Shown: one piece after another, positions 3,603-31,684 of the stretch
How positions within the stretch are numbered: the stretch's first letter is position 1
How the letters are laid out: every line of letters starts with the position of its first letter
Assembly (NCBI GenBank): GCA_044892525.1
Contig: CM097885.1
Span: 7,132,001-7,196,000, forward strand
DNA length: 64,000 nucleotides
DNA from: Schmidtea polychroa
Taxonomy: Eukaryota
Reading direction: 5' to 3'
Translations under genes and position numbers: made by a program
The notes under the pieces: generated by a model
The model's database searches: none
What the model saw: only the letters and a program-made list of their open reading frames with translations
Told to the model about the DNA's origin: nothing

Positions 3603-4118
3603 AGTAGTATGATTGGAGCTCCCCAGGCCAGGAGCTCCCCCGGCCACATATACCCCCTCCCCCCCCGGGAAATTTTTTTTTAAATAAAAGGTCAAGGTCA
3701 TTTATTTTTTTTTAATTTTTTGTTTTAATTAATTGGCCGGGAGGGCTCACACTTTTTTTCATCCCAAAAATTAATGTTTCTGCCAACATATTATATTGAT
3801 CGATAGCTTATTTTAAAGCTCAGTCCAAGACCTTTCGAATGAGCTATAGGTATCATATATATCTTTAATAGTTTTAATGTTATTAACAATTGATGACCAC
3901 CTTTTCAACGTTAAATTATTATTATTTTCCAAAATATTATTAATTGGCCGGGCGGGCTCACACTTTTTTTCATCCCAAAAATAAATGTTTCTGCCAACAG
4001 ATTTTATTGGACGATAGCTCATCTTAAAGCTCTATGCAACACCTTTCGAATAAGCTATTGAAGGTATCATCATCATTAACATCGGCAAAGTTATTAACGT
4101 TTTCCCGAGACCATTTTT

Positions 4119-4620
4119 CAAGGTCATTTATTATTTTCAAGGTCAAATTTTTAAATAAAAGGTCAAGGTCATTTATTTTCTCAAGGTCATTTATTATTTT
4201 CAAAGTCATTTATTTTTTCAAGGTCATTTAATTTTTCAAGGTCATTTATTTTTTCAAGGTCATTTAATTTTAATTATGTGGCCGGGAGGGCTCACACTTT
4301 TTTTCATCCCAAAAATTAATGTTCCCACCAACAGATTTTATTGGACGATACCTTATTTTAAAGCTCTGTGCAAGACCTTTCTAATGAGATATAGATTTCT
4401 ATCATACAATGACTCATCACATTTTTAGAACAAAGACAGTGACTCATACGATGACACATCACATTTTTAGAACGATGACTCATCAAGGTCAAGGTCAAAT
4501 TTTTAATAAAAGGTCAAGGTCAAGGTCATTTATTATTTTCAAGGTCATTTATTTTTTCAAGGTCATTTATTTTTTCAAGGTCATTTAATTTTTCAAGGTC
4601 ATTTATTTTTTCAAGGTCAT
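4119..4620. repeat. ~18-bp tandem repeats TCAAGGTCATTTATTTTT (mirror at ~30684-31170)
   Basis: Directly visible; translated as INDLEK repeats in spurious ORFs. Confidence 0.9.
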
Positions 4621-4774
4621 TTATTATTATTATTATAATTATTATTATTATTATATATAATCTATCCGACAAAATATTCTGTCCCACTATGGGTACTGCA
4701 CACAAATGTACTTCTCACATTCAACAAGTCACAATGGTACTGTTCACAATGCTACTGGTAAATATATTCAAGAC

Positions 4775-5740
4775 AAAACCTAAAATATTTTTTACACACA
4801 CATGCACAACCCATTAACAATTATTATTGTAAATATTAGTGAAAAACCTAAAATATTATTTACACACACACACAACCCATTAAACTTTATTATTATTATT
4901 ATTGAAAAACCTAAAATATTTTTTACACACACGCAATCCATTAACAATCATTATTATCAATATTAGTGAAAACCTAAAATATTTTCTACACACATATACA
5001 ACCCATTAAACTTTTATTATTATTATTATTATTATTATTATTATTATTATTATTATTATTATTATTATTATTATTGAAAAACCTAAAATATGGTTTACAC
5101 ACACACAACCCATTAACAATTATTATTATTATTATTATTATTATTATTATTATTATTATTATTATTAAAATTATTATTATTATTATTGCAAATATTAGTC
5201 AAAAACATAAAAACACACACACAACCCATTAAACTTTATTATTATTATTATTGAAAACCTAAAATATTTTTTACACACACGCAATCCATTAACAATCATT
5301 ATTATCAATATTAGTGAAAACCTAAAATATTTTCTACACACATATACAACCCATTAAACTTTTATTATTATTATTATTATTATTATTATTATTATTATTA
5401 TTATTATTATTATTATTATTATTATTGAAAAACCTAAAATATGGTTTACACACACACAACCCATTAACAATTATTATTATTATTATTATTATAATTATTA
5501 TTATTATTATTATTATTATTATTATTATTATTATTGCAAATATTAGTCAAAAACATAAAAACACACACACAACCCATTAACAATTATTATTATCAATATT
5601 AGTGAAAACCTAAAACATTTTCCACACACACAACCCATTAAACTTTATTATTATTAGTATTATTATTATTATTATTATTATTATTATTATTATTATTATT
5701 ATTATAATTAGTCAAAAACCTAAAATAATTTTTACACACT
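4775..5740. repeat. Composite satellite: AAAACCTAAAATA..TACACACACA..ACCCATTAA units separated by (ATT)n tracts
   Basis: Directly visible; mirrored at ~29375-30525 with different (AAT)n lengths and unit number. Confidence 0.9.
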
Positions 5741-27327: not shown

Positions 27328-27661
27328 GTGATCAGGCGACCTAGATCATTATGAATTAGGTAATCTGATATTCTTATAACATTAAATCCTTATAACATTA
27401 AATCCTTAAGACCAAGTAGTGAGGAATCTATGCACCCCGTTACCTTTTCTCGGAATTACTAATCTATAAATACATCTATTCCGAACTTTTTTACTTTTAA
27501 GGGAAGAAATTAAGGGTTAATGGCAATAGGGGACAAAGTTTAAAAGTTAAAAAAAGTGAAGAATATGGGGTAAAAAAGCATATAAATGTGGAAAATATGG
27601 GTCAATAGAGCTGTTTTTTTTTGAGGGTGGGGGTGCTGGGGTGCATAGATTCCTCACTACT
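27328..27661. repeat. Right TIR of the Polinton (334 bp)
   Basis: Reverse complement of 12717-13050. Confidence 0.95.
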
Positions 27662-27667
27662 GAGAAC

Positions 27668-30600
27668 AAACGATTAGATGGCGATTAACTTCTGGCCACA
27701 ACCCTAACAACATGAAAATTAAGATTTTAATTATTGAATTCGTTGTTTTCTGCCTGGAAATACTAACAGAATATTTTTTAATTCAAAGAATCTTCATTAT
27801 AAATTTTTGAATTTAAAAAATTAAATTAAGGATATATAAGTGTACATAAAATTATAATATTATAATATTATATAAAATTATATAAAATTATACTATATAA
27901 TAATATTAATGTTTAAATATGCTTAAATAACTAAAGTGTTTAAATATGTTTAAATAACTAAATTTAAATTATTTAAATATAATTCTGATATAACGTTATT
28001 TCTTTCGTTTTAGTATCCATAAAGTAAATAAATAAAGAATTTACTAAAATATTTTAATTATTTTACTTAGTAATGAAGAAAATGAATTATATGATTATGA
28101 AGAAGATGAACAAAATGGTGAAACACTAAATGACTTATGTTCTGGATTTAGAGATTTCTTATTAAAACATGAATTATAGAAGAAAATGAACCAGGCAAAA
28201 TGGTGAAACATTGCTATGTTCTGGATTTCTTAAATGAATTAGCTGATTGTGGGTGTCCTTCAACATGAATTATCAGACTTAAATTATGTAAACTTTCAAC
28301 GAATGTCAAGAAAAATGGGAAAAACCGATGTTTTAGCAATTAGATATTGTAAAGTACTACCTGAAGAATATTATTATTAATGTAAGACATGAATTAATCT
28401 TTTAAAATATATATATTATATTTAGGTATCTGTGTTTTATGGTGGGAAATGACATTGAAAAAGTATACCACAAATAACAGTTGCCTAATAGTCAGACAGA
28501 ATTTAATTTGTGACGATAAAATGTTAGATAATGTAAGTTAATTGCTTTTAAATCAATATAAATTTTAGCAATGATAGTGGACGCCGCATCAGAAACTAAG
28601 AAATACGTCCAATTTGCAAGATGTATTCCAAATGGCCCGATGGAGATGATAATTTTGAGATAGATTACCAGCAGAAGAGCGAGAAAAATTTGTAAATTAA
28701 ATATAATAGGGTTGGGTGGGTCCTCTTTATCCCTTAATTAATATATATTTACAAGCTGATCGTCGTGGTGGGCGGTTGTAATCCAACTAGTGGGAGGCCT
28801 CTGTAAATATATATTTGTGTTAGTGAAAACATTAATTAATTTGGTTATAGTGCCAATGACGCATGTATTTTGAAATTATACGTTTCGAATGTGCTGGTAG
28901 TTGACTACCCATGCTATGCGTAATGTTCCATACAGAAAACTATAATGCCCAGGTTCTTCTGACCCCACTTGGGGGAGGCACAGACGACCCTTGTGGACGC
29001 GAACAAATATCCACCGTGTCTTTCAGGCACAGATATTTGATCACTGCTCATTAGGCCTGGCAATACTAAATGCATAAACTTTGCCTTGTCCTCTCTTGTC
29101 TTGATTTTTATCGTTTAAATATAAAAGTGTGTGTGATAGGTTTTATTTACTAACCATAATGTTGAGTGTGTTGAGTGTGAGTAGTACCTTTGTGAGCAAT
29201 ACCCATAGGGGGACAGAATATTTTGTCGGATAGACTAGGAGTATATACACCCATGTTAAACAAGGTATGTGTATATAGAATGTATGTATAAAATTATCGC
29301 TCCTTATTGACAACTTCCTGTATAGGCAAACACAAAATATTGCAAACATATAATAATTCTCTACCCCATAACTTAGTGTGTAAAAAGTATTTTAAGTTTT
29401 TGACTAATTATAATAATAATAATAATAATAATAAAAATAATAATAATAATAATAATACTAATAATAATAAAGTTTAATGGGTTGTGTGTGTGGAAAATGT
29501 TTTAGGTTTTCACTAATATTGATAATAATAATTGTTAATGGGTTGTGTGAGTGTTTTTATGTTTTTGACTAATATTTGCAATAATAATAATAATAATAAT
29601 AATAATAATAATAATAATAATAATAATAATAATAATAATAATAATAATAATAATAATAATAATAATAATAATAATAATAATTGTTAATGGGTTGTGTGTG
29701 TGTAAACCATATTTTAGGTTTTTCAATAATAATAATAATAATAATAATAATAATAATAATAATAATAATAATAATAATAAAAGTTTAATGGGTTGTATAT
29801 GTGTGTAGAAAATATTTTAGGTTTTCACTAATATTGATAATAATGATTGTTAATGGATTGCGTGTGTGTAAAAAATATTTTAGGTTTTCAATAATAATAA
29901 TAATAAAGTTTAATGGGTTGTGTGTGTGTTTTTATGTTTTTGACTAATATTTGCAATAATAATAATAATAATAATAATAATAATAATAATAATAATAATA
30001 ATAATAATAATAATAATAATAATAATAATAATAATAATAATAATAATAATTGTTAATGGGTTGTGTGTGTGTAAACCATATTTTAGGTTTTTCAATAATA
30101 ATAATAATAATAATAATAATAATAATAATAATAATAATAATAATAATAATAATAATAATAATTGTTAATGGGTTGTGTGTGTGTAAACCATATTTTAGGT
30201 TTTTCAATAATAATAATAATAATAATAATAATAATAATAATAATAATAATAATAATAATAATAATAATAATAATAATAATAATAAAAGTTTAATGGGTTG
30301 TATATGTGTGTAGAAAATATTTTAGGTTTTCACTAATATTGATAATAATGATTGTTAATGGATTGCGTGTGTGTAAAAAATATTTTAGGTTTTTCAATAA
30401 TAATAATAATAAAGTTTAATGGGTTGTGTGTGTGTGTAAATAATATTTTAGGTTTTTCACTAATATTTACAATAATAATTGTTAATGGGTTGTGCATGTG
30501 TGTGTAAAAAATATTTTAGGTTTTGTCCTGAATATATTTACCAGTAGCATTGTGAACAGTACCATTGTGACTTGTTGAATGTGAGAAGTACATTTGTGTG

Positions 30601-31684
30601 CAGTACCCATAGTGGGACAGAATATTTTGTCGGATAGATTATATATAATAATAATAATAATAATAATTATAATAATAATAATAAATGACCTTGAAAAAAT
30701 AAATGACCTTGAAAAATTAAATGACCTTGAAAAAATAAATGACCTTGAAAAAATAAATGACCTTGAAAATAATAAATGACCTTGACCTTGACCTTTTATT
30801 AAAAATTTGACCTTGACCTTGATGAGTCATCGTTCTAAAAATGTGATGAGTCATCGTATGAGTCATTGTCTTTGTTCTAAAAATGTGATGAGTCATTGTA
30901 TGATAGAAATCTATATCTCATTAGAAAGGTCTTGCACAGAGCTTTAAAATAAGGTATCGTCCAATAAAATCTGTTGGTGGGAACATTAATTTTTGGGATG
31001 AAAAAAAGTGTGAGCCCTCCCGGCCACATAATTAAAATTAAATGACCTTGAAAAAATAAATGACCTTGAAAAAATAAATGACCTTGAAAATAATAAATGA
31101 CCTTGAGAAAATAAATGACCTTGACCTTTTATTTAAAAATTTGACCTTGAAAATAATAAATGACCTTGAAAAATGGTCTCGGGAAAACGTTAATAACTTT
31201 GCCGATGTTAATGATGATGATACCTTCAATAGCTCATTCGAAAGGTCTTGCATTGGGCTTTAAGATGAGCTATCGTCCAATAAAATCTGTTGGCAGAAAC
31301 ATTAATTTTTGGGATGAAAAAAAGTGTGAGCCCTCCCGGCCAATTAATAATATTTTGGAAAATAATAATAATTTAACGTTGAAAAGGTGGTCATCAATTG
31401 TTAATAACATTAAAACTATTAAAGATATATATGATACCTATAGCTCATTCGAAAGGTCTTGGACTGAGCTTTAAGATGAGGTATCGTCCAATAAAATCTG
31501 TTGGCAGAAACATTAATTTTTGGGATGAAAAAAAGTGTGAGCCCTCCCGGTGAATTAATTAAAACAAAAAATTAAAAAAAAATAAATGACCTTGACCTTT
31601 TATTTAAAAAAAAAATTTCCCGGGGGGGAGGGGGTATATGTGGCCGGGGGAGCTCCTGGCCTGGGGAGCTCCAATCATACTACT
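27668..31684. repeat. Outer part of the right inverted arm of the palindromic element
   Basis: Reverse complement of ~3603-7430 with indels and substitutions. Confidence 0.9.

Follow-up and report, generated by a model that had tools for sequence, protein, structure and literature searches.

What is a 13-kb palindrome that has the ends of a Polinton and no genes, and how did it come to be in a planarian chromosome? The question is raised by a 64,000-nucleotide stretch of the Schmidtea polychroa genome (NCBI GenBank assembly GCA_044892525.1, contig CM097885.1, positions 7,132,001 to 7,196,000 of the forward strand; hereafter the window), in which an outer element at 3603-31684 starts with AGTAGT, ends with ACTACT and is interrupted by a second, nested Polinton. 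An earlier note on this DNA proposed a non-autonomous Polinton parasite analogous to snap-back defective genomes. Our analysis places the outer element in a family of gene-less palindromes whose ends are shared with a 16-17 kb Polinton (hereafter the helper), and we consider it likely that such palindromes are snap-back satellites, copied and integrated by the proteins of the helper. The parts of the outer element, with window coordinates and strand, are as follows.

3597..3602, forward: left copy of the target-site duplication (TSD), ACTATT, found once at the empty site, in contigs from runs X5 and X11
3603..9802, forward: left arm, 6,200 bp
3603..5740, forward: terminus and subterminal repeat zone, with ~210-bp units, TCAAGGTCA 18-mers, and 63-bp and TTA arrays
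5869..5969, forward: ~90-bp motif, with more copies near 4648-4739 and 7722-7822 and a reversed one at 9560-9628
5975..9802, forward: unique arm core, ~4 kb
9803..10344, forward: central unpaired spacer, 542 bp
10345..12716, reverse: inner part of the right arm, 99.8% identical to 7430-9802
12711-12716: TSD copy of the nested element (GAGAAC), within the inner right arm
12717..27661, forward: nested Polinton, with TSD GAGAAC and a 378-bp terminal inverted repeat (TIR)
27662..27667, forward: second TSD copy of the nested element
27668..31684, reverse: outer part of the right arm, ending in ACTACT
31685..31690, forward: right copy of the TSD, ACTATT

Without the nested insert the outer element measures 13,131 bp, and its arms (6,200 bp on the left; 6,389 bp on the right, as 10345-12716 plus 27668-31684) make up 95.9% of that length. 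The earlier description, of AGTAGT termini within a perfect 6-bp TSD and an inverted repeat of about 96% with 6.2- and 6.4-kb arms and a 542-bp spacer, is thereby borne out, with ACTATT flanking both sides. Also as described, the arms are not identical: 36 substitutions and 10 indels separate them, 18 of the 36 substitutions lying within the first 450 bp, and only the right arm holds the nested Polinton, whose ends diverge from those of the outer element after 6 nt. The spacer is common to the family, most relatives having ~165-180 bp extra, and the subterminal zone (3603..5740) is the portion that the outer element and the helper family have in common. The earlier claim that no credible long open reading frame (ORF) is present holds as well. 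The single ATG-initiated ORF of at least 100 aa (104 aa, 31160-31474) has no Pfam match, and the longest stop-free frame in the arm core, 99 codons, is within the range obtained by shuffling (median 76, 95th percentile 116). Searches of the outer element found no pPolB or retroviral-like integrase, either as an ORF or as a remnant, and no capsid or packaging genes.

Such a structure could be an assembly or library fold-back artefact, as might be suspected from the fact that only short contigs were placed, none of them across the element, and that several copies of the family have identical arms over 2.2 kb. The locus itself speaks otherwise. Two other studies supplied contigs, one of 763 bp in run X5 and one of 533 bp in run X11, that cover the left flank to 3603 joined to the right flank from 31685, with one ACTATT. 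Compared with the right flank of the window, 10 of 395 and 14 of 334 letters differ, and the empty site may be a paralogue instead of an allele; since it has one ACTATT, 6 bp were duplicated on insertion in either case. The outer element is a genuine insertion. A contig of run X1 at the left junction was discounted as a bridge, having just 26 letters inside the element. The composite insertion recurs with the same TSD at C1 6.86 Mb, C1 6.95 Mb and C144, and these copies (L043-L050) are segmental duplicates of 99.5-99.8% identity, so that the four loci represent one insertion event. A sequencing run of a second organism contains 0.20 of the words. An artefact would also have to produce dozens of loci with distinct perfect TSDs, a common spacer, arm asymmetries, a nested insertion in one arm, decayed old copies and a restriction to particular families, and we regard it as very improbable.

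How widespread is the structure? The exact end 22-mer has 305 genome occurrences, to which end variants add further ones. Among the first 100 of these places there are 25 inward-facing end pairs, namely the window, its duplicate and 23 loci that were fetched. Perfect and distinct 6-bp TSDs flank 21 of the 23, so the further copies that the earlier note proposed to look for do exist. These 21 loci comprise 13 gene-less elements (73-100% self-inverted), two deleted forms, three helper-type elements, two hybrids and one palindrome of a gene-bearing half; the two loci lacking a TSD are embedded ends. A 20-mer of the arm core, which sits in the SRP-like head discussed below, has 1,652 occurrences, hybrids included, and its first 100 places gave 35 head-to-head pairs and no same-strand neighbours. 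Extrapolation from these 100 places suggests roughly 580 palindromes in the genome. All 10 of the head-to-head pairs that were fetched are palindromic; their TSDs match in six, agree at 4 of 6 letters in one and are replaced by mirrored flanks in another, while in two an end is missing or mismatched. The 22 full palindromes, a set that excludes 7-8 kb copies and the copy with mirrored flanks, span 11.5-15.0 kb (median 13.9 kb, coefficient of variation 7%); shorter copies of 7-8 kb with TSDs exist. By rough estimate the family would occupy ~1% of the genome (580 x 13.9 kb of 781 Mb). The first 45 nt are identical at both ends in 16 of 20 copies.

A second gene-less lineage (L105/L106, L119/L120, L111/L112) has AGTAGGTAG ends and includes a 16.1-kb element with TSD TACCAA and one of 12.6 kb. 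It shares the inner arm and spacer with the window family at 65-75% identity, and therefore the palindromic architecture is old. Other arrangements were also encountered. At C1 241.09 Mb (L053) there is a tandem array of ~3.17-kb units, each opened by an element end, and two places outside recognised elements, window 63692-64000 and L041:1-250, resemble the arm core (9282-9412, 9659-9720) over short stretches at 79-84% identity.

If the palindromes have no genes, what moves them? The same ends are found on helper-type elements that measure 16.2, 16.8 and 16.9 kb, and the gene-bearing elements at C1 13.99, 86.30 and 233.35 Mb have both the 22-nt end and the subterminal repeats. An autonomous Polinton sharing the end, which the earlier note had suggested seeking, is thus present at three loci; its 16.2-16.9 kb, and not the 14.9 kb of the nested element used in that note, is the size to which the palindrome should be compared. 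The helper encodes a TBP-like protein (154 aa, PF00352, E 9e-16; L016:3136-3597, reverse strand), an A32 ATPase, an integrase with a chromodomain, pPolB and a 407-aa capsid-like protein. The predicted fold of the latter (pLDDT 92) matches viral major capsid proteins in Foldseek (E 4e-16), including those of iridovirus, PBCV-1 and mavirus, and on this model it is a double-jelly-roll capsid protein. PHROGs and PDB sequence searches with the capsid protein were uninformative, and the search for integrase homologs gave no useful names.

The DNA match between the window arm and the helper is confined to the first 2.1 kb of the arm. Just inside each helper end lie one or two copies of the ~90-bp motif, which does not occur in the nested Polinton and is likely to be a cis signal. 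Helper 20-mers occur 353 times for pPolB and 385 times for the integrase. Of the first 100 integrase sites, 38 have a colinear pPolB site, and hence the palindromes are probably several-fold commoner than full helpers.

The nested Polinton is a passenger. As a candidate helper it was rejected, because it has no DNA in common with the helper and its pPolB is only 27% identical. Its genes are the following.

14251-15543: capsid, open frame
15573-16958: integrase, open frame
16970-17761, reverse: ATPase, open frame
22875-27254, reverse: pPolB, open frame

The nested integrase (15573-16958) has an N-terminal phospholipase A2-like domain (PF08398), and the first 247 bp of each nested TIR (12717-12963, 27415-27661) are a self-inverted unit with AGTAGT...ACTACT as its bounds. 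The family has 769 pPolB sites in the genome and 1,306 exact ends, and given this abundance the insert in the right arm needs no special cause. Nor need preferential nesting be invoked for a second nested-family end, beside a palindrome at C1 245.4 Mb, given the 1,306 ends.

Fold-back recurs in the helper family itself. Nine outward-facing pairs were counted at 93 pPolB sites, and three pairs at 100 integrase sites. Each of the nine pPolB pairs proved on retrieval to be palindromic; TSDs flank seven of them, and the turn points vary. The gene-half palindrome at C1 34.13 matches the helper at 99% identity, and its junction contains a short local inversion. As read from these structures, independent fold-backs of both helper halves have occurred. 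In contrast, when 100 pPolB sites of each family are compared (the first 100 in the nested one), 18 in the helper family and none in the nested family lie in opposite-strand pairs within 20 kb (Fisher p 3e-6). Judged by position only, two pairs occur among the first 100 nested-family capsid sites, an inward one at 15.8 kb and an outward one at 14.9 kb.

These counts bear on a second explanation, in which palindromes come from host break repair, by fold-back at a break within the element, and are spread by integrase-mediated excision and reinsertion in S phase with no copying by pPolB. A short local inversion such as that at C1 34.13 is possible at repair junctions, and TSDs establish integrase action only. 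Break repair should affect the nested family equally, yet none of 100 of its 769 pPolB sites is paired, and it leaves unexplained the equalisation of arms across lineages whose centres are 25-30% apart. This account strikes us as quite improbable.

Hybrids and embedded ends extend the picture. Polymerase-less hybrids consist of the left half of the helper, with six open frames, joined to a palindrome arm; the first type was found at three loci (L019/L020, L129/L130, L131/L132) and the second at two (L025/L026, L133/L134), while a fourth hybrid candidate that was fetched had a different structure. Within each type the junction is common to the loci and each locus has a TSD of its own, so these hybrids spread without a polymerase of their own. 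Embedded element ends occur after a conserved ...AAACAGTAG stretch in pPolB-bearing elements of several lineages.

Embedded-end loci: L018:285; L075:9698; L063:9546; L015; L065; L069

In three palindromes embedded ends bound the centre, as expected from fold-back at an internal inverted repeat. No empty form of the embedded-end elements was present among the loci examined.

The proposal of a snap-back non-autonomous Polinton is therefore upheld in part. The element is a non-autonomous, multi-copy derivative, it has a partner with the same ends, and fold-back recurs in the partner family; it is not a simple fold-back of a helper end, since the sampled helper contains nothing that matches the spacer or ~4 kb of each arm. 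Where, then, does the arm core come from? Helper and nested proteins (tblastn) did not match it, nor did Pfam when its six frames were read through stops. Among 747 ORFs from the fetched loci only those of sister copies matched, a translated genome search returned family copies only, and ORFs beside ten older relatives gave no match. Coding on the minus strand of the core was dropped as unsupported, the protein and ORF searches having given no match. One feature of the core resembles a known RNA.

6326..6370, reverse: 5′ head like the Alu domain of signal recognition particle (SRP, 7SL) RNA (Rfam RF00017, 29.6 bits)

The resemblance is weak (E 1.8e-5 to 8e-5, with a score below the gathering score of 70), and the head was not recovered when the scan was limited to 500 bp. 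Selection on it was rejected as a signal, with 3 of 45 columns variable versus 170 of 1,081 elsewhere (p 0.14). The surrounding 6075-6425 has 20 variable columns of 350 versus 153 of 776 in the rest of the probe, and this low-variation stretch of 350 bp is possibly a small RNA gene or a cis element.

What keeps the two arms of a copy alike? Over 2.2 kb of the core, the mean difference between the two arms of a copy is 0.13% (10 copies), against 6.7% between different copies (221 pairs). In a tree of arms, the arms group by copy except for two near-identical copies. Copy-private alleles stand on both arms in 112 cases versus 61 on one (22 and 19 two-armed copies), and 27 of the 61 single-arm alleles belong to one older copy. 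Duplications and deletions may also be mirrored; at C1 203.76, for example, each arm has the same 1.6-kb block. Between outer-core distances and the distances measured in the inner core and spacer there is no correlation (rho 0.04 and 0.01). Copies evidently recombine, and in most cases, though not in all, a recombinant has become fixed on both arms. Equalisation appears not to continue in place. In the four segmental duplicates none of seven assessable post-duplication changes is mirrored. Four arm differences of older date are retained by every duplicate, and older relatives have arms 3.2% and 5.4% apart. Because the post-duplication changes are unmirrored, the arms were probably equalised before insertion.

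This timing bears on a third explanation, modelled on chromosomal palindromes and foldback transposons, in which the element is mobilised by the helper and its arms are kept alike after insertion through host gene conversion between arms or copies. Consistent with conversion, 131 of 192 arm-to-arm differences form blocks of alleles that are both present in other copies, a pattern that could also result from ectopic conversion between copies in the chromosomes; in one duplicate a subterminal unit of 211 bp was lost in place, and some palindromes extend into their flanks. Conversion acting in place is difficult to reconcile with the absence of mirroring in the duplicates, with the 3-5% distance between the arms of older copies and the 27 private single-arm changes of one copy, or with the appearance of new palindromes with perfect TSDs from the helper and none in the more abundant nested family. 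We judge it unlikely, though less so than break repair.

The reading that we favour, a snap-back satellite of the helper, would work as follows. The element would pass through a stage of free linear DNA, both of whose ends would serve as origins. In strand-displacement synthesis a new strand that runs past the spacer would pair back on itself and take its own first arm as template, and this self-templating would rewrite one arm from the other. Alternatively, the displaced strand would fold into a 6-kb stem, and repair of the folded single strand would have the same outcome. Insertion of the product by the helper integrase would then duplicate 6 bp of the target, and from that point on each arm would decay by itself. 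We infer template switching as the origin of the palindrome, and a turn of this kind, made at an internal inverted repeat, would account for palindromes with embedded ends around the centre. Less firmly, free copies may recombine among themselves and with the helper, and packaging in capsids may hold copies near helper length, which would account for lengths of ~70-90% of the helper; a packaging constraint would fit the sizes of the 22 full palindromes, beside which the 7-8 kb copies with TSDs must be set. A broader and more tentative interpretation, one that we put at somewhat less than even, is that of a germ-line-integrated defective-interfering swarm. It would comprise helpers, polymerase-only palindromes, polymerase-less capsid/integrase hybrids and gene-less 14-kb satellites, which would recombine as free genomes, complement one another in trans and be held near capsid size, their arm identity being reset at each replication.

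Several points weigh against the favoured reading. Neither free DNA nor a terminal protein, a particle or a replication intermediate was observed. No contig or long read across the whole element was seen, the placed contigs being short. The searches described above found no source for the arm core. The test of mirroring in place consists of seven events at one locus with a 15-kb insertion in one arm, and the arm differences built from shared alleles, described above, count on this side as well. Simple self-copying predicts that the subterminal zone should be the most equal part of the arms, and it is often the least equal. Finally, some palindromes continue into their flanks (C1 0.19 Mb, 12.80 Mb), so that chromosomal inverted duplication probably occurs too. 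Flank-extended palindromes (L121, L081, L082, L122, C1 0.18-0.21 Mb; L107, L108, L123) repeat in alternating orientation, which suggests chromosomal inverted duplication or local mis-assembly.

How does the family compare with known systems? Its AGTAGT-type inverted ends, its 6-bp TSD and its partner with pPolB, integrase, ATPase and capsid protein are those of Polintons/Mavericks as defined in PMC6431247, PMC3014272 and PMC8097293. It differs in that the outer element is gene-less and has an inverted repeat of 6.2-6.4 kb, 96% of its length, versus a few hundred bp (584 bp, PMC3014272; 744 bp, PMC11414722). As in a non-autonomous Polinton, 5′-AG inverted ends and a 6-bp TSD are combined with ends common to a gene-bearing family in the genome. 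Internally deleted non-autonomous Polintons were reportedly described by Kapitonov and Jurka in 2006. Here, by contrast, the palindromes outnumber the helper and the arm core is not derived from the sampled helper; with arm core and spacer unmatched, the interior does not qualify as a deletion product of it.

Snap-back or copy-back defective interfering genomes (defined in PMC6140465) have one end duplicated as a long hairpin, depend on a helper and originate recurrently; the palindromes described here have the hairpin form and probably depend on the helper, in whose own family fold-back recurs. They are transient and belong to RNA viruses, whereas the planarian family is DNA, germ-line-integrated and an old lineage with a fixed spacer. 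Near-total self-complementarity (95.9%) and the same terminus at both ends (16 of 20 copies) are found in it. In DNA systems, adenovirus 12 SYREC is palindromic and genome-sized, and palindromic adenovirus minichromosomes and phi29 replicons exist. SYREC further shares a protein-primed system, viral ends flanking non-viral DNA and the need for a helper (PMC2396429). Those molecules are laboratory products with no spread by integration, and the family described here is natural, with hundreds of insertions. Little literature on phi29 palindromes and adenovirus panhandles was obtained. Foldback transposons (FB, Galileo) also have very long inverted arms, internal tandem repeats and no coding capacity; they move by a cut-and-paste transposase, and their ends and TSD lengths are different. 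The Polinton ends, the 6-bp TSD and the pPolB/integrase partner do not fit a transposase-driven foldback element.

Protein-primed strand-displacement replication is established for adenovirus and PRD1 and assumed for Polintons (PMC8097293, PMC11886824), and vertebrate Mavericks have constrained sizes (PMC8097293). According to a 2025 paper, direct evidence for panhandle, homology-restoring intermediates in protein-primed replication is still lacking (PMC11886824). Literature searches on Polintons with palindromes, non-autonomous forms, fold-back and planarians, with passages of papers that include PMC8532177 and PMC5499653, turned up no description of such a family; the founding Polinton paper lay outside their scope, as did Repbase and Dfam, whose entries may include it under an uninformative name.

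The window also contains a 30.6-kb long terminal repeat (LTR) element at 32379-62970, whose 4.2-kb LTRs differ by 8 substitutions and 1 indel. It encodes gag, a 3,248-aa frame with fusion glycoprotein, protease, reverse transcriptase, RNase H, integrase and ankyrin repeats, and a RING-MATH ORF, and fits the planarian Burro elements as described in PMC6431247, in keeping with a planarian host.

What does the palindrome family mean for Polinton biology? Polinton replication itself has never been observed, and the changes, some mirrored and some not, in hundreds of pairs of 6-kb arms constitute a natural record of the mode of copying. Arm divergence may date insertions; in a defective-interfering swarm of the kind outlined above, it would do so as LTR identity does. 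Gene-based Polinton screens would miss the palindrome family, and dense long inverted repeats of this kind bear on genome stability, hairpin RNA and assembly quality.

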